Positions 11,257 to 61,382 of a DNA stretch of 64,000 nucleotides are shown piece after piece. Origin of the DNA: Candidatus Omnitrophota bacterium (GTDB lineage: Bacteria; Omnitrophota; Gorgyraeia; Zapsychrales; Zapsychraceae). How positions within the stretch are numbered: position 1 is the stretch's first letter; every line of letters starts with the position of its first letter. Position numbers and translations under genes: made by a program. The stretch lies in NCBI GenBank assembly GCA_023247445.1, contig JAHFGL010000005.1:11087-75086 (forward strand), in the 5' to 3' direction. The notes below the pieces were generated by a model. It had not been told where the DNA came from and made no database searches. It saw only the letters and a program-made list of their open reading frames with translations.

Positions 11257-11304
11257 ATCTAAGCTTTGTTTCTTTTACCTTATCTCGACTTATAATCAGG
11301 GCGG

Positions 11305-11414
11305 CATCAATTTTCCTTATTACAAACAGTTATAATTGATACTGCACTCACTTCTTCTAATAAGATCAAATTGATGCAGTACTCACTACCTTAAAAAGTT
11401 AAGGAGAGTGAGTG
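11305..11414. mobile_element. ~110-nt 'gtcaat' element, copy 1 (divergent): ...attgatactgcactcac...ttctaataag...attgatgcagtactcac + terminal hairpin cactcac/gtgagtg
   Basis: Shares half-sites, spacer and hairpin architecture with copies at 25942-26050 and 39368-39482. It contributes the last 6 codons of the helicase gene. Confidence 0.5.
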
Positions 11415-12637
11415 CGACGCTTATTCCCAGGCTTCAAAAAACTAAATTTATTTTTTGGCCGATGTGGTCCGGATGATGAACTATGGGAGGCTTCTACATT
11501 AGGAACAAACTGATTATTGGGAAATTCTGGACTTTTCGATCTAGGCAAAGACATCTTCATTAGTTTTTCAATCTTCTCAACATCTTCACTTTGAAGAGGT
11601 GTGGCCAGCGTCACTGCGTGTCCAGCACATCCCGCGCGTCCCGCACGACCAATGCGGTGCACATAGTTTTCACTATCATCGGGAATATCATAGTTGATTA
11701 CAAGCTCAATCATGCTCACATCAATGCCTCGGGCAGCGATGTCCGTTGCAACCAAGACTCGATAACGTCCGCGCTTAAAACCTTCCATGGCATCACCACG
11801 CTGACCCATCGAACGATTGGAATGAATCTCGGTGACCTTTTCTCCCATCTGCGCAATACTCCTCGCCACTCTTACGGCTTTTATTTTAGTGCGTATAAAA
11901 ACCAAAACCGGACCGCGATATTTTTTCAAAAGCATTCTCAAGACTTTAACTTTAACCGATTCTTCGACGATAAAGAGTTCCTGACTCAAAGCTTTGGGAG
12001 CCGTTCCAGGCGGGGCCACTTCCACATTAATAGGCATCTGCATATGTGCGGTTGCAAGTTTTACGATATCAACCGGCATCGTTGCTGAAAAAAGCATGGT
12101 CTGTTTTTTCCCGGTCAAGCAACTAAGAATCTTATCAACCTGCGGGGCAAAACCCATATCGAGCATTCGATCAGCTTCATCAAGAACAAGAATTTTAATA
12201 TCGCCAAGATCAAATGTTCCTTGATAAATATGATCAAGTAAACGTCCAGGAGTTGCGATTAGTATGTTTGGATTCTTTCTAAGATCAGCAAGCTGCGGAG
12301 AAATACTAACGCCACCAATTAAAACAACACTCGACATTTTGAATGGACGCAAGATATCTTTGATCGCCTCATGAATTTGAATAGCGAGCTCACGTGTTGG
12401 CACAAGAACCAGCGCCCGTCCACCTTCAGCGGCAAGTCGCTGCACCATCGGGATACCAAACGCTAATGTTTTACCGGTCCCTGTTTGCGCGATGCCGACA
12501 ATATCTTTTCCTTCAAGCGCCAAAGGAATCGCCTTGTGCTGAATTGGCGTCGGGACAACAAACTTCATGCGTTCAAGGACGCTAAGCATATCCGGCGCAA
12601 TTCCTAAATGATAAAAACTTAAATTTGAATCAAGCAT
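11399..12637 (-). CDS. DEAD-box ATP-dependent RNA helicase
   Basis: Q-motif, AQTGTGKT, DEAD, SAT, HRIGRAGR motifs; basic C-terminal tail. Confidence 0.9.
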   Translation of the reverse strand: MLDSNLSFYHLGIAPDMLSVLERMKFVVPTPIQHKAIPLALEGKDIVGIAQTGTGKTLAFGIPMVQRLAAEGGRALVLVPTRELAIQIHEAIKDILRPFKMSSVVLIGGVSISPQLADLRKNPNILIATPGRLLDHIYQGTFDLGDIKILVLDEADRMLDMGFAPQVDKILSCLTGKKQTMLFSATMPVDIVKLATAHMQMPINVEVAPPGTAPKALSQELFIVEESVKVKVLRMLLKKYRGPVLVFIRTKIKAVRVARSIAQMGEKVTEIHSNRSMGQRGDAMEGFKRGRYRVLVATDIAARGIDVSMIELVINYDIPDDSENYVHRIGRAGRAGCAGHAVTLATPLQSEDVEKIEKLMKMSLPRSKSPEFPNNQFVPNVEASHSSSSGPHRPKNKFSFLKPGNKRRTHSP

Positions 12638-15225: not shown

Positions 15226-15548
15226 AATAATTTTTCTCCCTTATATGTTCTTATGTAATTATTCGACAACAGTGATTGGCACAGATGGGATTATAACAAA
15301 GGTCTTAAAATTGGGAAGGAGAAATTAGTTACACACTTAGCCTGTAACAATCCTCACGCTGTTATGGCAACTAAAAATATAAAGAACGGCCTTCGTTCTG
15401 ACTCAGCTAACTGGTTGTGCACTTGGAGGGCAAAGGAGAACTGGTTGCCCTCACGCTCTTCTTTAGTAGCGAATGCTGGGATTTCGATTTTGGTTGCGCA
15501 CTTGGTTTTTCTTTTATCTTTGGAAACCAAGTACTGCAACCAGCTTCT

Positions 15549-15597
15549 CTAAAAAGGAAAAGGGACGTTATCCATGATAACGTCCCTTTTATTGAAG
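15549..15597. terminator. Bidirectional intrinsic terminator (agggacgttatc-cat-gataacgtccct) 3' of tRNA-fMet
   Basis: 12-bp stem flanked by T-runs on both strands. Confidence 0.75.
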
Positions 15598-15598
15598 C

Positions 15599-15675
<77 letters not shown>

Positions 15676-15833
15676 CAATATGTGCTTCTTTAAGTAAGAA
15701 GCAAAAATATCTATTCCGGGGAAGCACATATTGCGCGGGACTATTTTCTGAAACCTTCGTTTTCAGAAAAGTTGCCCCGCGGCTCTATTTGCTTCTTTGG
15801 AATTAGAAAATTTATTTAAAGAACAATTAATTT

Positions 15834-17622: not shown

Positions 17623-20600
17623 ATGCAAAAGATTATTATTTGGCTCAAAATTAATTGGTTAAAAATCCTTCTAATCGTCCTCTTTACCCTACTTCTCGCC
17701 AGCCTTATTGCCTATTGTACCTATATCTACCAAAGCTACCTTGGCCTTGAAAATTTTACAAAAAAACAAGTCGCGGGTACGCAGGCGATGTACATGCCGA
17801 TGATGGTGTTTTCTCAACTTCTTACGCTTCCTTTTGTCTTTGCGATGTATTACTACATCATGACGGGCGGCGGCGCTGGAACGTTTAAAAAACCCGAAGT
17901 TTCTAAAATGAATGTCAAATGGAGCGACATTATTGGCATGGAAGAAGCCAAAAAAGATGCGCTAGAAGTTATCCGATTTCTTAAAGATCACTCGATGCAA
18001 AAGGCTATTGGTGGAAATGTTATCAAGGGAACCATTCTTCTTGGACCTCCAGGTTGCGGGAAAACATATTTGGCCAAGGCGATCGCCACCGAATGTGGAC
18101 TTCCCATGATCTCAGCGACAGGAAGTGATTTTGTGGCGATGTATATGGGTCAAGGGGCCGCAAGAATGAAATCCCTTTTTAAGCAGGCCCGCTCTGAAGC
18201 TAAAATCCATGGCGGATGTATTATTTTTATCGATGAAATCGATGCCTTTGCCCGTCCCCGCCAGCAAGAAATGGGCGGTGGGGCAACAACATCCCACAAT
18301 GCCACCATCAATCAATTTCTAACTGAATTTGATGGGTTACGCAAAAAAGAAAATAACATTATTGTTCTGGCCGCCTCCAATGTTGAAGAAGATGAACTCG
18401 ACCCAGCGATTATGCGATCCGGTCGCTTTGATCGAAAAATTTATGTTGAGAAACCAAACGCTCGAGAACGTGAAGCCTTAATCAAATTTTATCTTTCGAA
18501 AGTTGAAGCAGATAAAAATCTTGATATTGGATTGTTTGCCGAAAAGGCGCAATGGTTCTCCCCTTCCGATATCTATAACATGATTCGAGAAGCCGGAGTC
18601 ATTGCCATTAGAAATAATCATAAAGCTATTGCCAACGAAGATTTAAATGCTGGTCTACAGCGTGTCATATCCTCAATTGAAAAAACTGGTGGAGCAAAAA
18701 TCCTAAGCCAGAAGGTCAATATTAAGTGGGATCAATTAATTGGCATGGAAGAAACAAAAAAGGATGCGTGGGAAATTGTAGAACTTTTGCGTGATCGCCA
18801 TCGCTTAAAAGTGATCGGCGGCCAAATTATTAAAGGTGTCATCATGATCGGCCCGCCGGGATGCGGCAAAACTTATTTGGCTAAGGCCATGGCGACCGAA
18901 TCAGGTTTTCCCTTTATGACCGCCACAGGTGGAGAATTCACAGGCAAATATTGGGGTTCTGGCGTTGAAAGGATTAAAGAATTATTTAAAGAAGCCCGTA
19001 AACTGGCCAAGACCGAAGGCGGATGCATCATCTTTATCGATGAGATCGACGCGCTCATTCGTCCGCGCGAGCAAAAAGGAGTTGAACCCGGGGGTGATCG
19101 TCATTCCAACGCTACCGTCAATCAGTTTCTATCAGAAATGGACGGTCTAAAAAATATGGATGAAGGAAATGTCGTTGTCTTGGCGGCAACTAACGTCGAT
19201 GAAGGAAATCTTGATGAAGCGGTGCTGCGCTCAGGACGATTTGATCGCAAGATTTATTTCAGCAAACCTTCTTCAAAAGACAGAGAAAAATTACTCCAAT
19301 ATTATCTTTCTAAAATAAAAACAGATGAAACCGTAAATATTCCCCACCTTGCGGATAAAGCCAAATGGTTTTCAGCCGCTGATATTAATAATATGGTCAG
19401 AGAGTCCGGCATTTTAGCTTTACGAGAAAAACGAGAAATTATCTCAATGGACGATTTAGAAAAAGCGCTGGATCGTGTCATGATATCGATTGAACACACG
19501 GGTGAAAATAAAATCCTTGGCAACAAAGTCAATGTTAAGTGGGATGAAGTCATTGGCATGAACGATGCCAAAGAAGAAGCCTGGGAAATTGTTAAATTAC
19601 TTAAAGACCGAAATATGGTCAAAGCCGTCGGAGGAAAAATCGTTAAAGGTGTCATTATGTTTGGTCCTCCCGGCTGCGGGAAAACATATTTGGCTAAGGC
19701 CATGGCGACAGAAGCTGGATTTCCATTTATGACTGCCCAGGGAAGCGATCTTGTTGGTGTTTGGGTGGGTGAAGGCGCCAGAAAGATGAAAGATATTTTC
19801 AAAGAAGCTCGAGCGATGGCCCGCGCCGAAGGCGGATGTATCATCTTCTTTGATGAAATAGATTCTTTCGCAACCCCGCGTGGAAAAGATATGGGCGGCG
19901 GCGGAATGACAAGTCACAACGCCGCGATCAATCAATTCTTGACAGAGCTCGATGGGTTAAGACAGCAGGAAAATAATATTTTTGTTTTAGCGGCCACAAA
20001 TGTGAAAGAAAAAGATCTCGACCCTGCTATCTTAAGGGCCGGAAGAATTGAAAGAAAAATTTATATCAAACGCCCCAACCTCCAAGAGAGAACAGATTTG
20101 CTCAATTTTTATTTGGCTAAAGTAAAAATTAATGCGGGTGTCGAGGCAAAAGCCTGGGCACGGATTGCGGTTGGATTTACACCGTCTGAAATTGATAATT
20201 TAATCCGTGAGGCAGGACTTTTGGCTTTACGCAACAATAGGGATACTATCAACCAAACCGATATGACGGAAGCTTATGATCGAATTACAATCGGGTCATT
20301 ATCCAACGCACGTTATTCGGAAAAAGAAAAAACCATGACGGCCTATCATGAAGCCGGGCACGCCATCATGACCTATCTCATCCATCCTACCGACGAAGTC
20401 ATCAAAGCAACCATTAGGCCTCGCAAGGATTACTTGGGATACATTTATTATCGTCAGGCGGACGATTTTGAACCAGGAGCTTCCAATATAGAAGAAGAAC
20501 TCGCTAAAATTAAAATTTCTATAGCTGGTTATGCTGCTGAAAAAATTGTTTATGGAACAGTGACCACAGGTGTTTGGGGCGATTTCCAACATATCATGCA

Positions 20601-20913
20601 ATATGCGCATCGTATGGTCTGGGAATTAGGCATGGGTAAATCTGGATTTCTTGGCAACTTTCTTTCCATTGGCTCACAACATGGAGAGCTTTATATGTCT
20701 GAGAAAACAAAAGAGACATTGGATAATGATGTGCAACAAATATTACAATCAAGCCTCAAAGAAACGATGGACATTCTGACCAAACATAGAGATCTGTTGG
20801 ATTATTTTACTCAAGAACTTTTGAAAAAAGGTGATTTGCAATATGACGAGATCGTTGCCATATTTGATAAATTTGGATTAAAGCCGCTGACAAGACCACC
20901 CAAGGTCTCGTAA
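17623..20913 (+). CDS. FtsH-like membrane metalloprotease with three tandem complete AAA+ modules and one M41 peptidase domain (HEAGH)
   Basis: 2 N-terminal TM helices, no periplasmic domain. Three ~250-aa modules each carry Walker A GPPGCGKTYLAKA, Walker B IIF(I/F)DEID, an aromatic pore loop (MYMG / KYWG / VWVG) and an SRH/arginine finger (SGRFDRK x2, AGRIERK). The C-terminal part has HEAGHAIM. A TTCAAG...TATACT promoter lies upstream. Confidence 0.85.
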   Translation: MQKIIIWLKINWLKILLIVLFTLLLASLIAYCTYIYQSYLGLENFTKKQVAGTQAMYMPMMVFSQLLTLPFVFAMYYYIMTGGGAGTFKKPEVSKMNVKWSDIIGMEEAKKDALEVIRFLKDHSMQKAIGGNVIKGTILLGPPGCGKTYLAKAIATECGLPMISATGSDFVAMYMGQGAARMKSLFKQARSEAKIHGGCIIFIDEIDAFARPRQQEMGGGATTSHNATINQFLTEFDGLRKKENNIIVLAASNVEEDELDPAIMRSGRFDRKIYVEKPNAREREALIKFYLSKVEADKNLDIGLFAEKAQWFSPSDIYNMIREAGVIAIRNNHKAIANEDLNAGLQRVISSIEKTGGAKILSQKVNIKWDQLIGMEETKKDAWEIVELLRDRHRLKVIGGQIIKGVIMIGPPGCGKTYLAKAMATESGFPFMTATGGEFTGKYWGSGVERIKELFKEARKLAKTEGGCIIFIDEIDALIRPREQKGVEPGGDRHSNATVNQFLSEMDGLKNMDEGNVVVLAATNVDEGNLDEAVLRSGRFDRKIYFSKPSSKDREKLLQYYLSKIKTDETVNIPHLADKAKWFSAADINNMVRESGILALREKREIISMDDLEKALDRVMISIEHTGENKILGNKVNVKWDEVIGMNDAKEEAWEIVKLLKDRNMVKAVGGKIVKGVIMFGPPGCGKTYLAKAMATEAGFPFMTAQGSDLVGVWVGEGARKMKDIFKEARAMARAEGGCIIFFDEIDSFATPRGKDMGGGGMTSHNAAINQFLTELDGLRQQENNIFVLAATNVKEKDLDPAILRAGRIERKIYIKRPNLQERTDLLNFYLAKVKINAGVEAKAWARIAVGFTPSEIDNLIREAGLLALRNNRDTINQTDMTEAYDRITIGSLSNARYSEKEKTMTAYHEAGHAIMTYLIHPTDEVIKATIRPRKDYLGYIYYRQADDFEPGASNIEEELAKIKISIAGYAAEKIVYGTVTTGVWGDFQHIMQYAHRMVWELGMGKSGFLGNFLSIGSQHGELYMSEKTKETLDNDVQQILQSSLKETMDILTKHRDLLDYFTQELLKKGDLQYDEIVAIFDKFGLKPLTRPPKVS

Positions 20914-21834: not shown

Positions 21835-21903
21835 CGTCATCCTGAGCAAAGCGAAGGATCTCTTCGGAGATCCTTCAGTCGCTTTCGCTCCTTCAGGATG
21901 ACG
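21835..21903. repeat. REP-like palindrome, GTCATCCTGAGCAAAGCGAAGGATC...GATCCTTC...CAGGATGAC variant
   Basis: Imperfect inverted repeat between the lipoprotein gene and purN. Confidence 0.7.
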
Positions 21904-22533: not shown

Positions 22534-22723
22534 CGTCATTCTGAGCAAAGCGTACTGACTTTGCCATATTTATATTTAGATGAAGTCAGTACGTACCAAC
22601 TTCATCTAAAATATTTAAAGGAAAGTTGGTGCGAAGAATCTCTATACACTCAAGAAACTCGGAGATCCTTCGTCCACCTCTGGTGGACTCAGGATGACTT
22701 AGTAAACGTATACGTTTACTAAG
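22534..22723. repeat. Composite nested palindromic element: GTCATTCTGAGCAAAGCG...GGACTCAGGATGAC arms enclosing several internal hairpins, followed by a perfect 30-nt palindrome gacttagtaaacgta|tacgtttactaagtc
   Basis: Read directly: arms at 22534-22552 and 22685-22698. Internal hairpins are gtactgactt/aagtcagtac, ccaactt/aagttgg and tccacc/ggtgga. Confidence 0.7.
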
Positions 22724-24013: not shown

Positions 24014-25906
24014 TTACTTTTTTTCCTTTAGTTGTTCGCTTAAATCATCTGCCGATTTGTTATAAACTTTCGCCTGATCAAGAAAACCAAGCTGATGGTA
24101 GCTTTCTGCCAATCGCCGCAAAGCACGCTCATCAAGTTCATCCTTCTCTCCCTCTAATTTAACCATTCGTTCATAGTATTCAATAGCTTTCTGCCATTTT
24201 TCTTTCGAATCATAACTAGCGGCTAAATTAAACAATGCATTTTTGTAAAATGGGTCAAGGGCCAAGGCCTTCTCATACTGCGCCATTGATTCATCAAGAC
24301 GTTGGGTTTTCCAATACATAACTCCAAGGCTGTAATAAAGTCCGGCATTATCCGGTTCTGTTTTAAGACGATTCAAATATAGTTCAATAAGAATCTGGTA
24401 ACTTAAATTCAAATTGTTTTTAAGAATGTGTTCCAGTTCGCCGGCATTTTTAACATTCTCATACTCCTGAATTCCTTCCAAATACTTCCCTTGATCACAA
24501 AGAACCTTGCCCAAACCAATCCGGGCACGGGCATCCCAGGGATCTTTATCGATAGTATAACGAAAATGTTTCTTAGCATCCTCATAACGACCGCATAATC
24601 CGTAAGCCACCGCTAAAGAATTGCGTACGCGGGCGTTATTCTGATTATGTTCTAACGAATGTTCAAACATTGCGATTTGTTGTGTAGCATAAATATTTTG
24701 TTGAATCGTTGTCAGTGAAAGAAAAACATAAAAACCAATAATCAAACCTGTCATAAACGCTGTGCCGACAGTTTTTCTTTCCATTATCTTTGAAATAAGT
24801 TGTTGTGCGGCTAAAACTAACAAAACAAATATCCCAACAGAAGGCAAATACAAGAAATGATCGGCGGTTGAAATCCGGTCCCAAGAAACTTTGACGGGAA
24901 TTATTTGCGCGACCGGCAAGAGATTAATAACAAACCATAGAATAAAAAAACTTATCACAGCTGAAATTCGTCGTCTAAACTTTACAACCCATGTTCCTAA
25001 GGCCAACCATGCCCCTAATGCCGCAAGAAATTGGATATCAGCTAAATTTTTTAGAGTTGCCATCGATCGGTCATAATACATATCCACAGGAAAAATAAGT
25101 AATTGCAAATAGGTCACCGTTGCTTTTAAAAATGTTCCGATACCTAAAATCGTCACCATAATCAGTGGCCAATGAAAAACGGCGGTAATCCCCAATATCT
25201 TGCGCCAAACAAAGTAAAAAACAGTCGTGGCCACAAAAGTAAAAAATATTCCCCACTTTTGGCGTTGATTAACTTTAATTTCATCTTTAAAACAAACTAA
25301 ATAACTTAAGACAAGAAAGGGCAACATTACCGCAGACTCTTTGGATAAAAGACTAAACATATAAGAAATTAACGATAAAACTAGAAACGGAAGTTTCGTT
25401 CTCGTTGGTTCCAAAGATAAAAGAAAAAGATAGAACGCCCACAACATAAAGAAAGCACATAACAAAATTGCCCGGCCAGGAATATTGGCCACCGCCTCAA
25501 CATGAATAGGATGAATAACAAATAATATTGCCGTCAGTAAGGCCACGATGCGTCGGCCCTGAAGCTTCTCAATGATCAAAAAGACTCCAATTGAGCTCCC
25601 TACATGAAGCAAAACATTGGTTAAATTGTAAAAAAATGAATCAAGTTTAAAGAAATGATACTCAATCATAAAACTCAGATAAACCAACGGACGATAATAC
25701 GAGTTTTCTCCAAAAAAAGACGATCGTAATATTTCACCGACATACTGGAAACTTTTAATTTTGGAATTAAGAATGATTGCGTAATAATCATCCATCGTTT
25801 TAAACGGGGCATGAAGTATTAAACTATAAAGGGAAAATCCCAATATGCCGAGGATCAAAAAAATTGTAAGGTTGGATTTAAGGAGGTTGTTGAATAATTT
25901 ATTCAT
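24014..25906 (-). CDS. Polytopic membrane protein with C-terminal TPR repeats (PMT/DUF2723-like glycosyltransferase-type N-domain)
   Basis: ~11 TM helices then TPR-like repeats. The first 13 codons of the track ORF are translated from tRNA-like sequence, so the start was moved to MNKLFNNLLK. Confidence 0.6.
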   Translation of the reverse strand: MNKLFNNLLKSNLTIFLILGILGFSLYSLILHAPFKTMDDYYAIILNSKIKSFQYVGEILRSSFFGENSYYRPLVYLSFMIEYHFFKLDSFFYNLTNVLLHVGSSIGVFLIIEKLQGRRIVALLTAILFVIHPIHVEAVANIPGRAILLCAFFMLWAFYLFLLSLEPTRTKLPFLVLSLISYMFSLLSKESAVMLPFLVLSYLVCFKDEIKVNQRQKWGIFFTFVATTVFYFVWRKILGITAVFHWPLIMVTILGIGTFLKATVTYLQLLIFPVDMYYDRSMATLKNLADIQFLAALGAWLALGTWVVKFRRRISAVISFFILWFVINLLPVAQIIPVKVSWDRISTADHFLYLPSVGIFVLLVLAAQQLISKIMERKTVGTAFMTGLIIGFYVFLSLTTIQQNIYATQQIAMFEHSLEHNQNNARVRNSLAVAYGLCGRYEDAKKHFRYTIDKDPWDARARIGLGKVLCDQGKYLEGIQEYENVKNAGELEHILKNNLNLSYQILIELYLNRLKTEPDNAGLYYSLGVMYWKTQRLDESMAQYEKALALDPFYKNALFNLAASYDSKEKWQKAIEYYERMVKLEGEKDELDERALRRLAESYHQLGFLDQAKVYNKSADDLSEQLKEKK

Positions 25907-25916
25907 TGGGGAAAGA

Positions 25917-26090
25917 TGAAGCCGACGACCGGGATTGAACCGCATTGACTTTCCTTTAAAAATATTATTGTAGTCAATACGGCGTCAACTCATTCTAGAT
26001 AAAGTCAATGCAGTGCCAACTACCATAATCATTAATTAAAAGAAAGTTGGCGCCGGTGACCCACGCATTACACGGTGTATTGTTCTTAAA
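25917..26090 (-). other. Degenerate tRNA-Thr 3'-half remnant (T-arm/acceptor-like 25917-25941 + anticodon-arm-like 26051-26090) split by a ~110-nt element
   Basis: gccgacgaccgggattgaacc aligns to tRNA-Thr gctggcgacaggaattgaacc. gacccacgcattacacggtg aligns to gacccgcgcattacgaatgcg. Confidence 0.5.
25942..26050. mobile_element. ~110-nt 'gtcaat' element, copy 2 (inserted in tRNA remnant), terminal hairpin ccaact/agttgg
   Basis: cattgactttcc...agtcaatacggcgtcaac...ttctagataa...agtcaatgcagtgccaac + hairpin. ~75% identical to copy 3. Confidence 0.55.
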
Positions 26091-26091
26091 A

Positions 26092-26164
26092 AGCTGGCGA
26101 CAGGAATTGAACCTGCGACCCGCGCATTACGAATGCGCTGCTCTACCAACTGAGCTACGCCAGC
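26092..26164 (-). tRNA. tRNA-Thr (CGU)
   Basis: Reverse complement is GCTGGCGTAGCTCAGTTGGTAGAGCAGCGCATTCGTAATGCGCGGGTCGCAGGTTCAATTCCTGTCGCCAGC. Confidence 0.9.
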
Positions 26165-26406
26165 AAGAATTTTCAAAAAAAACAAATCTTATATTGAGGA
26201 AAAATTCTTGCCGTCCTGACTTCCATTAAAAAATTTAGAAAAGCCAGGGCGGCGCAATAAAAAAGGCCTCTTACTGGCTCATGTTATTACTTCTTGTCTT
26301 TTTAATAACATCATCAGAACCGTTAAGAAACCTGAGAAAAACATTAAAAAAAGGTGGTGCCGCATTGCTGCTACTAAATCAATCTTTTCTTTAAAAAAGC
26401 GTGTCC

Positions 26407-26664: not shown

Positions 26665-26771
26665 CCGCGTTTGGCTTCGTAGAGCATTCTACTACGCCCT
26701 CATCTTTCAAAGACATAATAGAATGCATTCTACGAAGCCCAAAGCGAAAGCATTTGGGCGTAGTAGAATGC
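26665..26771. repeat. 16-bp perfect inverted repeat (gcattctactacgccc / gggcgtagtagaatgc) enclosing the palindrome tagaatgcattcta and direct repeats; 3' arm abuts tRNA-Phe 3' end
   Basis: Read directly from the sequence. Confidence 0.7.
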
Positions 26772-26841
26772 CGAGACCCAGAATTGAACTGGGGACGCAA
26801 GGATTTTCAGTCCTTCGCTCTACCAACTGAGCTATCTCGGC
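26769..26841 (-). tRNA. tRNA-Phe (GAA)
   Basis: Reverse complement is GCCGAGATAGCTCAGTTGGTAGAGCGAAGGACTGAAAATCCTTGCGTCCCCAGTTCAATTCTGGGTCTCGGCA. Confidence 0.9.
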
Positions 26842-26930
26842 GAGAATTTTCCACTAAAAACCATTAAGAAAAAATTCTTGCAGTCCTGTCTTCTATTCAA
26901 AACTTCTAGAGAAGACAGGGCGGCAAATGT
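26842..26930 (-). promoter_or_regulatory. tRNA-Phe upstream module, paralogous to the tRNA-Thr upstream region (26165-26260)
   Basis: Shared ...cagggcggc...gaaaag.cag..cttc.att.aaaa...gcaagaatttttc...gaaaattct immediately 5' of both tRNAs. Confidence 0.5.
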
Positions 26931-28448: not shown

Positions 28449-28457
28449 AATTTAAGG

Positions 28458-28535
28458 GGCTATCAGTCTTCAGCTTTCAGCTATCAGTAGCTGAGCAGCT
28501 TTCTGATAACTGACGACTGAGAGCTGACAGCTGTT
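28458..28535. repeat. AGCT-rich palindromic repeat (copy 1)
   Basis: ctatcag...cagctatcagtagctgagcagct...ctgagagctgacagctg, related to 52746-52826. Confidence 0.6.
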
Positions 28536-31735: not shown

Positions 31736-31761
31736 ACGATCAACCCCGAACCCGTTGATTT

Positions 31762-31912
31762 ATCCCAAATTTTGCACGCACACATAATTTATGCACAAAA
31801 ATGTGCGTTCAAAATTATGGGATTACCCCGCCAAAGTTGTCGATATCTCCAACGGCATCAACTTTGTCGGCCCTTTGGGCGGATTTTGCTATTGCAAAAT
31901 CCGGGTTTATTA
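31762..31912. ncRNA. ~150-nt structured element, copy A (unknown family)
   Basis: 95% identical to 61232-61382. Helices present are acgcaca/tgtgcgt, a long ccgccaaagttg..catcaactttgtcgg hairpin, gccc-ttt-gggc, and a perfect 10-bp cggattttgc-tatt-gcaaaatccg hairpin followed by ggtttatt. Confidence 0.5.
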
Positions 31913-39305: not shown

Positions 39306-39502
39306 TGTCATCCCCGAATGCTTTAATCGGGGATCTTAATCACGGGGTAAACTCCTTTGGATGCCCGCATTGACTTACCTTAATATAAGTTTTGAGAAGT
39401 CAATACTGCACTGGTCTTTTCTAATAGAAAAAGTCAATGCAGTACTGGTTACAAAAATAAAAGTTATGGAAAACCAGTGCCGACAGAAACATTCGGGCAT
39501 AA
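39306..39502. repeat. Composite REP-like element: gtcatccccgaatgctttaatcggggatc + cggggtaaa + ggatgcccg...cattcgggcat, with nested 115-nt insertion
   Basis: Same architecture as the intact ~110-nt copy at 56411-56520. The insertion splits the atgcccg/cgggcat hairpin. Confidence 0.65.
39368..39482. mobile_element. ~110-nt 'gtcaat' element, copy 3 (nested in REP hairpin), terminal hairpin actggtt/aaccagt
   Basis: cattgacttacc...agtcaatactgcactgg-tcttttctaatagaaaa-agtcaatgcagtactgg-ttacaaaaataaaagttatggaa-aaccagt. Confidence 0.6.
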
Positions 39503-41524: not shown

Positions 41525-41587
41525 TGTCACCCCCCGAATGTTTTTATCGGGGGTCTAGATCCCCGCTTTAAACATGCGGGGATGACA
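41525..41587. repeat. Tandem REP-like hairpins (gtcaccccccgaatgtttttatcgggggtc + gatccccgctttaaacatgcggggatgac)
   Basis: Read directly from the sequence. Confidence 0.7.
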
Positions 41588-45387: not shown

Positions 45388-45454
45388 TGTCATGCCCGCC
45401 CCCGTGTTAGTCATCCCCACGAAAGCGGATATGACACGCAGGGCGGGGATGACA
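45388..45454. repeat. Nested REP-like palindrome (gtcatgcccgccc...gtcatccccacgaaagcggatatgac...gggcggggatgac)
   Basis: Read directly from the sequence. Confidence 0.7.
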
Positions 45455-47665: not shown

Positions 47666-47740
47666 TGTCATACCCGCGAAAGCGGGTATCTAAAATCAGC
47701 GCCTCCCCAAGATCCCCGATTAAAGCATTCGGGGATGACA
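47666..47740. repeat. REP-like element pair (gtcatacccgcgaaagcgggtatc ... gatccccgattaaagcattcggggatgac)
   Basis: Second hairpin is the exact reverse complement of the 39307-39335 hairpin. Confidence 0.75.
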
Positions 47741-52745: not shown

Positions 52746-52826
52746 CAGCTACCAGCTATCAGCCTTCAGCTGCCAGCAGTCTTCAGCTGAAAGCTACTGA
52801 TAGCTGAGAGCTGAAGGCTGAAAGCT
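52746..52826. repeat. AGCT-rich palindromic repeat (copy 2) in the thiS-thiG intercistronic gap
   Basis: cagctatcagccttcagctgccagcagtcttcagctgaaagctactgatagctgagagctgaaggctgaaagct. Confidence 0.6.
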
Positions 52827-56410: not shown

Positions 56411-56520
56411 TGTCATTTCCGCCCCGCGTTGTCATACCCGCGGAAGCGGGTATCTAAGCGGGGTAAATTCCCGCGGGAATCTAAATTTTGGATGCCCGAC
56501 AAAAACATTCGGGCATGACA
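56411..56520. repeat. Intact composite REP-like element (gtcat...gtcatacccgcggaagcgggtatc...cggggtaaattcccgcgggaatc...ggatgcccgacaaaaacattcgggcatgac)
   Basis: Reference copy for the 39306-39502 element. Confidence 0.75.
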
Positions 56521-60979: not shown

Positions 60980-61231
60980 ATCTTCTCCTTAAAATATTAA
61001 TGACCCTGAGAGTCTCTTGTGTTTTGATTTTTACGTCGAGAATATTCATGCAAGGCAAAACATTGACATTTAATAATTTATAACTGTATAAAGTTACTAT
61101 GAATATAACAAAGGATTAATTTTTATACAAGAAGAAAACCTATTTTTTTGCTCTTAAATACAAATAAAAAATGGGACAAATGATTTGTCCCATGAGTAAA
61201 TTCACCAACATAGTAAATGCTTAAATTAATT

Positions 61232-61382
61232 ATCCCAAATTTTGCACGCACACATAATTTATGCACAAAAATGTGCGTTCAAAATTATGGGATTACCCCG
61301 CCAAAGTTGTTGATGTCTCTTACGGCATCAACTTTGTCGGCCCTTTGGGCGGATTTTGCTATTGCAAAATCCGGGATTATTC
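61232..61382. ncRNA. ~150-nt structured element, copy B
   Basis: 95% identical to 31762-31912. Central hairpin stem is perfect here (gttgatg/catcaac). Confidence 0.5.

Follow-up and report, generated by a model that had tools for sequence, protein, structure and literature searches.

A repeat of approximately 110 nucleotides occurs at several places in a 64,000-nucleotide stretch of Candidatus Omnitrophota DNA (hereafter the window), and the copy at 39367 to 39480 raises the question of whether such an element is a structured RNA, a transposon derivative, or another kind of mobile DNA. A sequence-only reading had described three copies of a "gtcaat" element that end in a covarying hairpin, with one copy in a REP hairpin, one in a tRNA remnant, and one at the 3' end of a gene. 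All three were recovered at the places claimed, and with symmetric boundaries they are as follows.

Copy 1, 11304..11415, plus strand: composite type; address a is TCAAT/ATTGA and address b is CTCAC/GTGAG; segments L (11304-11314, GCATCAATTTT), M (11334-11352, AATTGAT-ACTGCAC-TCACT), central mini-palindrome (11353-11365), R (11368-11387, AAATTGAT-GCAGTAC-TCACT), and C (11407-11415, AGTGAGTGC).
Copy 2, 25942..26053, plus strand: composite type; address a is TTGAC and address b is (G/C)CAAC; segments L (25942-25952), M (25972-25990), spacer palindrome TTCTAGA (25993-25999), R (26001-26021), and C (26045-26053).
Copy 3, 39367..39480, plus strand: composite type, the locus first noted; address a is TTGAC and address b is CTGGT; segments L (39367-39376, GCATTGACTT), M (39397-39415), mini-palindrome TTTTCTAATAGAAAA (39417-39431), R (39431-39450, AAGTCAATGCAGTACTGGTT), and C (39472-39480, AACCAGTGC).

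Pairwise blastn was weak alone, aligning copy 2 with copy 3 at 72% identity over 78 nt (E = 4e-4) and copy 1 with copies 2 and 3 at E above 0.2. In leave-one-out nhmmer searches, a profile of two copies recovered the third at full length each time (E = 1.5e-9, 6.5e-9, and 3.5e-10), and the mean column identity of the copies was 75 to 77%. These E-values and the column identity establish that the match among the three copies is far beyond chance. Each copy carries two address pentamers, a and b, which are each present three times and vary in concert between copies. The terminal hairpin pairs in all copies with different sequences (ACTCACT/AGTGAGT, CCAACT/AGTTGG, and ACTGGTT/AACCAGT), so its description as classic covariation was well founded; the pattern is even stronger than described, being three-way within each copy and reaching the GTCAAT sites. 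The name "gtcaat" does not fit copy 1, which lacks GTCAAT and has ATTGAT at its three sites, or CATCAAT at the left end; these altered sites are themselves concerted variation. Likewise, the half-site heptamers are reverse complements in kind but not as quoted, and the exact pair is TACTGCA/TGCAGTA, with an offset of one base. Protein-binding GTCAAT sites were dropped as an explanation, as copy 1 changes all three complementarily and the arms of the other members are unrelated. Copy 1 covers the stop codon (11399-11401) and the five final codons of a minus-strand DEAD-box helicase ORF (11399-12637); the six codons credited to it are thus five sense codons and the stop. A promoter module was also dropped, since a reasonable sigma-70-like match is confined to copy 2 (minus strand) and the other copies have the wrong spacing.

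The three copies of ~110 nt are real, but the family to which they belong is larger and includes other lengths. Behind the ~113-nt copies, a composite subtype, stands a simpler double-hairpin element, whose unit of ~40 nt consists of 5' GCAY, an arm (5-8 nt), TT(T)CC, an AT-rich loop of ~20 nt, the second arm (arm'), and RTAC 3'. Using a covariance model (R1) on the 64 kb with filters off, we detected 13 units with E below 0.01 and nothing else below 0.5. These units form seven elements within the window, which are intergenic apart from 17 nt that overlap the 3' end of the helicase; copies 1 to 3 and c4 are head-out inverted pairs. Four members lie beyond copies 1 to 3, and three of the four adjoin tRNA genes. 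They are listed here together with a possible relative, c8.

c4, 22552..22632, plus strand: simple double hairpin, GTACTGACTT..AAGTCAGTAC then GTACCAACTT..AAGTTGGTGC; model E-values 4e-7 and 2.5e-8.
c5, 26840..26921, plus strand: double hairpin, GCGAGAATTTT..AAAATTCTTGC-A-GTCCTGTCTTCT..AGAAGACAGGGC.
c6, 26163..26250, plus strand: double hairpin, GCAAGAATTTT..AAAATTCTTGC-C-GTCCTG..CAGGGC; repeat families D6 and D9.
c7, 15491..15605, minus strand: L arm GCAACCAGC, equal to the tRNA-Met 3' end; terminator-like hairpin in loop 1; internal segment S is GCTGGTTGC-A-GTACTTGGTT; C arm AACCAAGTGC; unit at 15498-15534 with model R1 E = 0.0011; fold z = -10.
c8, 26684..26771, minus strand: possible relative, a double hairpin with identical 16-nt terminal inverted repeats GCATTCTACTACGCCC.

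The GCA head of c8 is the tRNA-Phe 3' end. This element and a 19-bp perfect inverted repeat that takes in the first 6 nt of tRNA-Met look similar to the family, but model R1 is blind to both and they were left out of membership. Family members are 72 to 83% identical to each other, and given this identity nothing indicates recent activity. The 13 units have ~11 different arms (alignment A4). A two-hairpin scan returned 26 candidates against 5 to 17 in shuffles, which is weak evidence alone, and single 13-mers with 3 mismatches were no commoner than in shuffles; the motif alone is therefore not diagnostic.

What the members have in common is their architecture. When the two ends of an element are joined, their reverse complement is found inside it as segment S (a'-TGC-A-GTAC-b); in c4, 19 of 20 positions match. 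The composite copies contain S twice, as M and R on either side of a small palindrome, which explains why each address pentamer is found three times. Each copy matches its own reverse complement (E of ~1e-10 to 1e-6), and all members fold, with RNA as well as DNA parameters, into two neighbouring stems 0 to 1 nt apart (z = -2.1 to -10). Across 12 aligned units, compensatory (double-sided) changes occurred at 7 of the 10 stem pairs, with 23 compensatory cells against 6.3 in shuffles, and neither the covariation score nor the compensatory-cell count was matched in any of 500 shuffles. Paired cells amounted to 85.8% in these units, compared with ~40% when the partners were slid. At stem pair 2, 10 of the 12 units have a C.A mismatch, and copies 1 to 3 have a U.G at one fixed position of the R':C stem.

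Strong stem covariation, significantly stable folds, and a U.G at the same position in three copies would all fit a structured cis-acting RNA, for example one that acts in the leader or trailer of a pre-tRNA, stabilises mRNA 3' ends, or signals processing, maintained by RNA-level selection and with the dispersed copies being paralogues. However, both strands fold equally well because of the two-fold symmetry, and neither is favoured, since each carries C.A in one unit and U.G in the other. The symmetry therefore favours a DNA-level element over a strand-specific RNA. Moreover, the composite copies have neither a promoter nor a terminator of their own, and no Rfam 15 family matched them: only three tRNAs reached the gathering score in the window, and permissive scans of copies 1 and 3 gave weak generic hairpin (miRNA-type) matches far below threshold. 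An intrinsic terminator or attenuator was dropped, as no stem is followed by a T-run.

The surroundings of the elements show how they came to their places, and four features are needed for the comparison.

Split REP-like hairpin, 39359..39500, plus strand: repeat families D5 and D13, of the form GGATGCCCG[..]ACAGAAACATTCGGGCAT; left arm GGATGCCCG at 39359-39367, loop and right arm ACAGAAACATTCGGGCAT at 39483-39500.
Intact REP hairpin GGATGCCCGACAAAAACATTCGGGCAT, 56490..56516, plus strand: empty-site proxy for copy 3.
Intact REP GTCATCCTGAGCAAAGCGAAGGATC, 21836..21860, plus strand: empty-site proxy for c4.
tRNA-Thr-like 3' half, 25905..26091, minus strand: anticodon loop to 3' end, split by copy 2.

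Copy 3 splits a REP hairpin whose paralogue is intact, in agreement with the earlier proposal that it arrived by insertion. The nesting of copy 2 in a tRNA remnant was also borne out: its joined flanks give a canonical T-arm (ACCGG-TTCAATC-CCGGT), and the remnant aligns to positions 34 to 73 of the neighbouring tRNA-Thr. Similarly, c4 sits within a REP-like hairpin, between GTCATTCTGAGCAAAGC and GAAGAATCTC. At the level of sequence comparison, insertion is thus demonstrated for copy 3, copy 2, and c4. Relative to the intact targets, the insert exceeds the symmetric element by 1 nt at copies 2 and 3 and by 0 nt at c4, and comparison of these three with intact paralogous targets revealed no target duplication of fixed length. 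The left flank and the right end both close in (S)CG or GC, no longer motif being conserved, and direct repeats near tRNAs measure 5 to 14 nt. The MurJ-UvrC gap is 229 bp here but 11 bp in the closest relative compared; it is likewise 229 nt in one ENA contig, which presumably also contains copy 3.

A classical MITE, that is, a deletion derivative of a DDE insertion sequence with GCA..TGC (+ TTCC) terminal inverted repeats that moves by cut-and-paste and duplicates 2 to 3 bp at (S)CG, would account for several of these features. The element is small, AT-rich, and without an ORF; its ends are imperfect inverted repeats (11/16 to 11/18 in copies 1 to 3, and 16/16 in c8); and CG, up to 3 nt as SCG, can be read on both sides of copies 1 to 3, c4, c5, and c7. 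By contrast, the apparent SCG repeat is largely boundary ambiguity and variable in length, the extra DNA being just +1 or +0 nt. The only ends common to all copies are GCA..TGC and TTCC..GGAA, and the intervening 5 to 8 nt vary by end and by copy; the two ends of one element differ at 5 nt that a transposase would read, and the internal partners follow them. Nor is there a related insertion sequence or transposase within the window, and we consider a MITE quite unlikely. An invertible DNA switch was dropped, as the inverted repeats are just 20 to 55 bp apart.

Among the members beside tRNA genes, c5 adjoins the 5' end of tRNA-Phe (26769-26841, minus strand), the first two tRNA bases being common to both, and c6 adjoins the 5' end of tRNA-Thr (26092-26164, minus strand); c6 and c5 are 83% identical over 60 nt. 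A second GCAACCA after c7 (15491-15497) makes a 7-nt direct repeat. In two distant Omnitrophota MAGs, tRNA-Phe and tRNA-Thr have homologous double hairpins beside them, and matches to model R1 cluster around these two genes in two syntenic relatives, with zero matches in a Eubacterium control. The modules upstream of tRNA-Thr in the relatives align with c5 and c6 and differ in their arms while pairing is kept. The family is thus present in distant lineages, whose Lnt proteins are only 50 to 54% identical. In GCA_035453785.1 (L007), where an interrupted tRNA-Thr spans 19264-19545, the insert is a 192-nt tandem array of four hairpin units; tRNA-Thr becomes callable by ARAGORN once this array is taken out, and the element and the tRNA surroundings share a 13/14-nt repeat. 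No match to the copies was found in plasmids or phages by blastn or in metagenome contigs by pattern scans, and the sole genome-contig match to the three-copy pattern, in a Eubacterium coding region, was attributed to chance as it lacks the GTCAAT sites.

The arms near tRNA genes copy the neighbouring tRNA end or trailer in c7, c8, and the L007 element. This copying, together with the 19-bp repeat at tRNA-Met, would be expected if template switching or fold-back synthesis at quasi-palindromes had made the tRNA-adjoining members in place, with only the composite 110-nt copies being dispersed. However, c5 and c6 have arms in common though they flank different tRNAs, the arms of c4 and the composite copies are unrelated to their flanks, and the punctuation GCA/TGC and the centre TGCAGTMC are common to all members and lineages. 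We regard a local origin as very unlikely. The tRNA loci also bear on a structured RNA. c5 lies between tRNA-Phe and an upstream near-consensus promoter (TTGACA-17-TAAAAT at 27008-26980, minus strand) and would be in the leader transcript; double hairpins with different arms occupy the same tRNA-Phe and tRNA-Thr places in three lineages; and the units resemble acceptor-stem minihelices, in that a single A follows a G-C closing pair. Against this, REP hairpins, a T-arm, and a D-loop are broken by members, and one ORF has its end replaced, which marks the members as insertions rather than conserved genes. On balance, we regard a structured RNA as unlikely.

In our best reading, the family is a new variant of REP/BIME-like selfish DNA in the uncultivated Omnitrophota, whose mobilising enzyme is so far only a candidate. 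That the elements are non-coding, palindromic interspersed repeats of the REP/BIME/REPIN kind that move as folded single-stranded DNA has, in our estimation, about an even chance of being right. Each element is built from two units that meet at, or close to, a single unpaired base. As S is the reverse complement of the joined ends, a single strand folds into two coaxial stems in which S pairs with the element's own ends. The 5' and 3' termini, and with them the flanking DNA, come together at one point, as in a nicked dumbbell; movement would proceed through this folded single strand. A trans-acting enzyme may read the shape together with a small set of fixed bases (G-Y-R-C at the foot of the stem, where a C.A mismatch is conserved); the likeliest one would be a RAYT- or IS200-type HUH/Y1 transposase whose gene would lie beyond the window. 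The associated transposase or recombinase that the sequence-only reading suggested looking for did not appear: a comparison of the ~30 window ORFs with Pfam yielded no RAYT, IS200 TnpA, or other transposase, and no ORF lies inside the elements. The preferred target would be GC-rich structured DNA (REPs and tRNA stems) in a genome of 40% GC, and the arms would be free to drift while pairing is kept; their diversity is hard to square with an enzyme specific for hairpin sequence. A simple REP-like model does not foresee the copying of tRNA ends, the 7-nt repeat at c7, or the 13/14-nt repeat at L007. The kept position beside tRNA-Phe and tRNA-Thr in three lineages could reflect a host function instead of repeated insertion.

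The internal segment admits two further explanations. Site-specific or guide-assisted recombination would take the joined ends (J) as an att-like site with the core CG/GC(A) and would have S splint or guide the element's own ends, much as the donor-binding loop does in IS110 bridge RNAs. It draws on the match of S to the joined ends in every member and on end-target identities of 2 to 14 nt (GC at tRNA 5' ends, GCA at 3' ends, 7 nt at c7, and 13/14 nt at L007); in addition, the REPs and tRNA genes that received insertions are typical targets of IS110-family elements and integrases. However, there is no recombinase nearby, the element lacks a distinct part for target binding and falls far short of a bridge RNA in length, target identity is at most 3 nt for copies 2 and 3 and c4, and M and R both match the ends rather than the targets. 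We judge this mode of movement to be most unlikely. A slim chance is given to the units being mimics of the tRNA acceptor stem, their single A standing for the discriminator base, in a self-addressed mobile element, with an internal splint for both of its own ends, that moves without a sequence-specific transposase. This idea derives from the GCAACCA repeat at c7 and from the L007 tRNA-Thr being callable without its array. Such an element might pass in and out of tRNA D-loops, T-arms, acceptor ends, and REP hairpins by means of tRNA-processing or structure-specific nucleases and ligases, or, in RNA, as an intron-like insert, and the tRNA end displaced in the process would be rebuilt by the element.

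Returning to the REP-like reading, REPINs are symmetric and hairpin-forming, compensatory changes are common in them, and an IS200-like recognition of a "clover" form has been proposed (PMC3116915). The elements described here resemble REPs, BIMEs, and REPINs as short extragenic imperfect palindromes that occur alone, in inverted doublets, or as tandem arrays and are symmetric over their whole length. They also have alternative folds (two local hairpins or long-range pairing), compensatory changes that preserve the hairpins (PMC3116915), no constant target duplication, and a conserved tetranucleotide at the stem foot. By contrast, the foot motif is G-Y-R-C (GTAC/GCAC) and lies inside the stem, and the GT(A/G)G hallmark is absent. 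The stems are 8 to 10 bp with AT-rich loops of ~20 nt, whereas those of REPs are GC-rich with small loops, and stem sequences are nearly all different, whereas the REP sequence is near-invariant. The arms of the two halves are unrelated here, so the halves cannot pair together, and no RAYT gene is found among the ~30 window ORFs.

Mitochondrial repetitive hairpin and double-hairpin elements are intergenic and lie 5' of tRNA genes (PMC2800124), and the double-hairpin elements of Allomyces are described in that paper, which cites Paquin et al. 2000, as being without flanking duplications (PMC2800124). As in these elements (Allomyces double hairpins; fungal and sponge hairpins), two adjacent hairpins form the mobile unit, structure is more conserved than sequence, and insertion inside structural RNA genes also occurs. 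The mitochondrial elements, however, are organellar and show no demonstrable homology, the likeness being one of architecture alone; the host here belongs to a free-living or episymbiotic bacterial phylum, and its units are longer, with fixed punctuation (GCA..TAC, TTCC, and a single-base linker). Like PATEs of the IS200/IS605 group, the elements are non-autonomous, have subterminal hairpins at both ends, and show no constant target duplication. In IS608, short internal sequences pair with the ends (guide/cleavage-site pairing), a feature comparable to S. The hairpins of the IS608 type have short loops and a conserved sequence, however, and the guide pairing of IS608 is 4 nt and involves the left-side flank; no conserved tetra- or pentanucleotide target is found here past the terminal S or CG. 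With integron attC sites the elements share a substrate set by a folded single strand, little sequence conservation, and a conserved mispaired position. They are nevertheless dispersed and symmetric, without R''/R' core sites (RYYYAAC/GTTRRRY), a cassette array, or an integrase; attC was dropped as an identity, as the unit ends misfit these core sites and the neighbours are housekeeping genes.

These repeats would matter for annotation, since they break short-read assemblies, create false start codons (for example, the ATG of ORF 24014-25945 inside copy 2), rewrite gene 3' ends, as in the helicase, and hide tRNA genes from tRNA finders, as at L007. They would also provide a counterpart in bacteria to the double-hairpin elements of mitochondria and a natural test case of structure-guided versus sequence-guided DNA mobility. 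We know of no described repeat families in the Omnitrophota, an uncultivated phylum, and the family would give it a REP-like element in which little besides the shape and a few punctuation bases is fixed and which still inserts precisely into other hairpins and into tRNA genes.

The ~110-nt element that the sequence-only reading had seen in three copies was recovered as clearly related sequence at all three loci (copies 1 to 3), with a MAFFT mean column identity of 75 to 77% over ~115 columns. Given their short length and AT-rich composition, the copies were put to a leave-one-out test with nhmmer: in the 64-kb window, two-copy profiles found the third copy at full length with E = 1.5e-9, 6.5e-9, and 3.5e-10, and pairwise blastn among the three copies was far weaker than these profiles. 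The 13-mer motifs alone, with three mismatches allowed, were no more frequent than in shuffles; therefore, the family signal is the whole architecture. Two details of the motif needed amending: GTCAAT/CATTGAC stands in the other copies, but copy 1 reads ATTGAT/CATCAAT, and a complementary pair of half-site heptamers does exist, but the exact pair is TACTGCA and TGCAGTA.

Weaker matches of the three-copy profile were found at 22572–22633, 26189–26251, 26865–26920, and 15509–15580, and a simple scan for paired neighbouring hairpins flagged the same four places. These hold simpler members (c4 to c7) with a single internal splint, S. A separate GC-rich REP-like family, (T)GTCAT(C/A)CCCG..loop..CGGG(G/T)ATC, often forms three hairpins per cluster, and copy 3 and c4 are each inserted in one of its members.

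Members of the family and REP-like sites in the window
11304–11415, copy 1, composite; address a TCAAT, address b CTCAC
25942–26053, copy 2, composite; address a TTGAC, address b (G/C)CAAC
39367–39480, copy 3, composite; address a TTGAC, address b CTGGT
22552–22632, c4, simple; inside a REP hairpin
26840–26921, c5, simple; adjoins the 5' end of tRNA-Phe
26163–26250, c6, simple; adjoins the 5' end of tRNA-Thr
15491–15605, minus orientation, c7, simple; adjoins the 3' end of tRNA-Met
39306–39345, 41557–41587, 45409–45436, 47666–47740, 56411–56520, and 21836–21860, REP-like family sites

Every member is a pair of a ~40-nt unit that reads GCAY, arm, TT(T)CC, AT-rich loop, arm', RTAC. Stem covariation was computed on 12 readily aligned units with a 10-pair stem. 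In this stem 85.8% of cells were paired, against ~40% with the partners slid by one to three columns, a percentage that is partly built in because some units came from a hairpin-seeking search; copies 1 to 3, by contrast, were defined by sequence, and their double-sided changes are independent of that search. Two-sided changes occurred in seven of the 10 pairs, compensatory cells numbered 23 (6.3 in shuffles), and none of 500 shuffles reached the observed compensatory-cell count or covariation score. Pair 2 holds a C.A mismatch that is conserved in 10 of 12 units. R1, a covariance model built from the unit, was run over the whole window with filters off; it scored 13 units at E < 0.01 and found no further match below E = 0.5; the window thus holds seven elements.

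The composite copies run in the order L, loop, M, small palindrome, R, loop, C, where the ends are L (GCA then address a) and C (b'-GTGC) and the internal splints are M (a'-TAC-T-GCAC-b) and R (a'-ATGC-A-GTAC-b). Each copy therefore carries variable arm pentamers, or addresses, in threefold form (a once forward and twice complementary, b twice forward and once complementary), and since these change between copies, the covariation is three-way and acts at both ends. The composite element has two-fold symmetry, and on the other strand a and b swap roles; the opposite strand of each copy also hit the family profile (E 1e-10 to 1e-6), and both strands folded well (z −3.3 to −5.4). With RNA or DNA parameters, the minimum-energy fold has a long-range L:R helix, then one unpaired A, then the R':C hairpin, and L:M plus M':C is an equally available alternative. 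The joined ends of the element are the reverse complement of R, and likewise of M; therefore, an internal splint unites both termini in a single strand.

Uninterrupted versions of the targets were available for three insertions. Copy 3 splits the REP hairpin GGATGCCCG/CGGGCAT, as had been proposed, and the intact version lies at 56490–56516 in an otherwise similar REP cluster; the intact target for c4 is the REP at 21836–21860. Copy 2 indeed lies in a tRNA remnant, where it interrupts a canonical T-arm whose uninterrupted sequence was taken from the T-arm consensus; this remnant aligns to positions 34 to 73 of the adjacent tRNA-Thr and is therefore a 3' half. Together with the covariation in the 12-unit alignment, the intact targets bear out the reading of a covarying, inserted element. 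At the end of the DEAD-box helicase ORF, copy 1 supplies the stop codon and the five sense codons before it. The opening ATG of the ORF at 24014–25945 (TPR/PMT_2 protein) is the CAT of the copy 2 left end (25943–25945), so its annotated start is probably wrong; the minus strand of copy 2 (26019–25992) has a sigma-70-like match, TTGGCA-16-TAGAAT, directed at this ORF.

Up to 3 nt are legible on both sides of the insertions of copies 2 and 3 and c4 (CCG, CCG, and GCG), and CG is legible on both flanks in six of seven members. With symmetric ends, the DNA gained is the element plus 1 nt (copies 2 and 3) or plus 0 nt (c4). Because the termini are GC-rich, the apparent duplication is largely boundary ambiguity. 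No fixed-length target duplication was seen for these three insertions against their uninterrupted targets, which argues against a DDE-type MITE and led us to reject a typical MITE; its absence agrees with insertion by a single-strand (HUH-type) or recombination-type route. The MurJ-UvrC gap is 11 bp in the closest relative examined (UvrC 80% identical) and 229 bp in the window, where it contains REPs plus copy 3. Among ~30 window ORFs checked, no transposase, integrase, or reverse transcriptase was found, and the gene neighbourhood is housekeeping. We give about an even chance to mobility that would be single-stranded and structure-recognised, through an enzyme acting in trans.

Other features were observed in the window. 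The 1096-aa ORF at 17623–20913 consists of three tandem ~270-aa repeats (DNA 61–74% identical, spacing 807–813 nt) carrying GGCIIF(I/F)DEID-like motifs, which suggest a putative triple AAA+-type ATPase. An unrelated 152-nt repeat with several internal hairpins occurs in two intergenic copies, 97% identical (31760–31911 and 61230–61381), and low-complexity, partly palindromic CAGC(T/C)(A/G)TCAG-like words lie at 28452–28495 and 52748–52808, both intergenic.

By its UvrC and Lnt homologues, the window belongs to Candidatus Omnitrophota; it is part of a 94.5-kb MAG contig (P0121), and short contigs of the same organism are present in ENA and Logan assemblies. Strict patterns for the composite copies had no genuine match in the species-representative genome collection and none in JGI metagenomes; the composite subtype thus seems confined to its lineage, whereas the hairpin unit is not. 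Two distant syntenic relatives were compared, L005 (GCA_040960315.1, Lnt 54% identical) and L007 (GCA_035453785.1, Lnt 50% identical). R1 matches were grouped in three intergenic regions in L005, including the tRNA-Phe to tRNA-Thr interval, and lay only around these two tRNA genes in L007; the Eubacterium control locus had no R1 match. Members c5 and c6 align with L005 modules whose arms differ with pairing kept. Directly after tRNA-Phe, L007 has the same architecture, GCACTTGACTT..AAGTCAAGTGC-A-GTCCCGACC..GGTCGGGGC, with a centre, TGCAGTCC, that c5 shares exactly. A second tRNA-Thr(CGT) gene in L007 (19264–19545), just downstream of an intact paralogue, carries in its D-loop four units with single-A separators, a 192-nt array that splits the gene; deleting the array yielded a tRNA called by ARAGORN. 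A tRNA-Thr 5' fragment in L005 is interrupted at the same D-loop position.

The unit touching a tRNA is always of the perfectly closed GCA..TGC type, with GC(A) common to the acceptor-stem end, and its arm repeats tRNA or trailer sequence (7 nt, GCAACCA, in c7; 13 of 14 nt, CGGCACTT(G/T)ACTTC, in L007). Such copying could come from micro-homology at the integration site, from locally templated synthesis, or from selection favouring insertions that restore the tRNA end. A taste for GC-rich or CG-containing structured DNA in a 40% GC genome may alone explain the targeting of both REPs and tRNAs.

At 15670–15738, a perfect 19-bp inverted repeat, CCCGCGCAATATGTGCTTC .. GAAGCACATATTGCGCGGG, was not detected by R1; 6 nt of its left arm are the start of tRNA-Met, and a small second hairpin follows (15743–15769). 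Downstream of tRNA-Met, in minus sense, 15405–15503 contains the junction-like string CCAAGTGC(G/A)CAACCA twice in direct orientation plus a further GGGCAACCAG; these may have been left by earlier or tandem insertions at the 3' end of tRNA-Met. The duplicated tRNA-Thr-like 3' half (25905–26091) runs from the anticodon loop to the 3' end, and 26 nt separate it from the intact tRNA-Thr upstream; both tRNA-Thr paralogues are present in L007. Past integrase-mediated events at tRNA genes usually leave a duplicated 3' half of this kind as their footprint. A possible relative, c8 (26684–26771), is a double hairpin whose 16-nt terminal inverted repeats, GCATTCTACTACGCCC, are identical; it begins with the terminal GCA of tRNA-Phe and has a GC-rich terminator-like hairpin in its first loop; at the same place, L005 and L007 have a GCA..TGC hairpin with unrelated arms.

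By analogy, the closest functional counterparts are REP/BIME/REPIN sequences, with mitochondrial double-hairpin and repetitive hairpin-forming elements also close. REPINs are symmetric, form hairpins with compensatory changes, and have been proposed to take a "clover" form with IS200-like recognition (PMC3116915); the mitochondrial elements of fungi and sponges are intergenic and 5' of tRNA genes, and those of Allomyces lack flanking duplications (PMC2800124). Membership in the REP family proper was rejected on two tested features: GT(A/G)G is absent from the units, and their palindrome sequence, unlike that of REPs, is not conserved. The element belongs to no Rfam family, and an attC site was also rejected. 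The most apt description is a new form of palindromic interspersed repeat: a double-hairpin element, here bacterial, whose arms are hypervariable and co-evolve while its punctuation stays fixed. A tRNA-mimic or intron-like reading, if true, would make the finding of greater interest.
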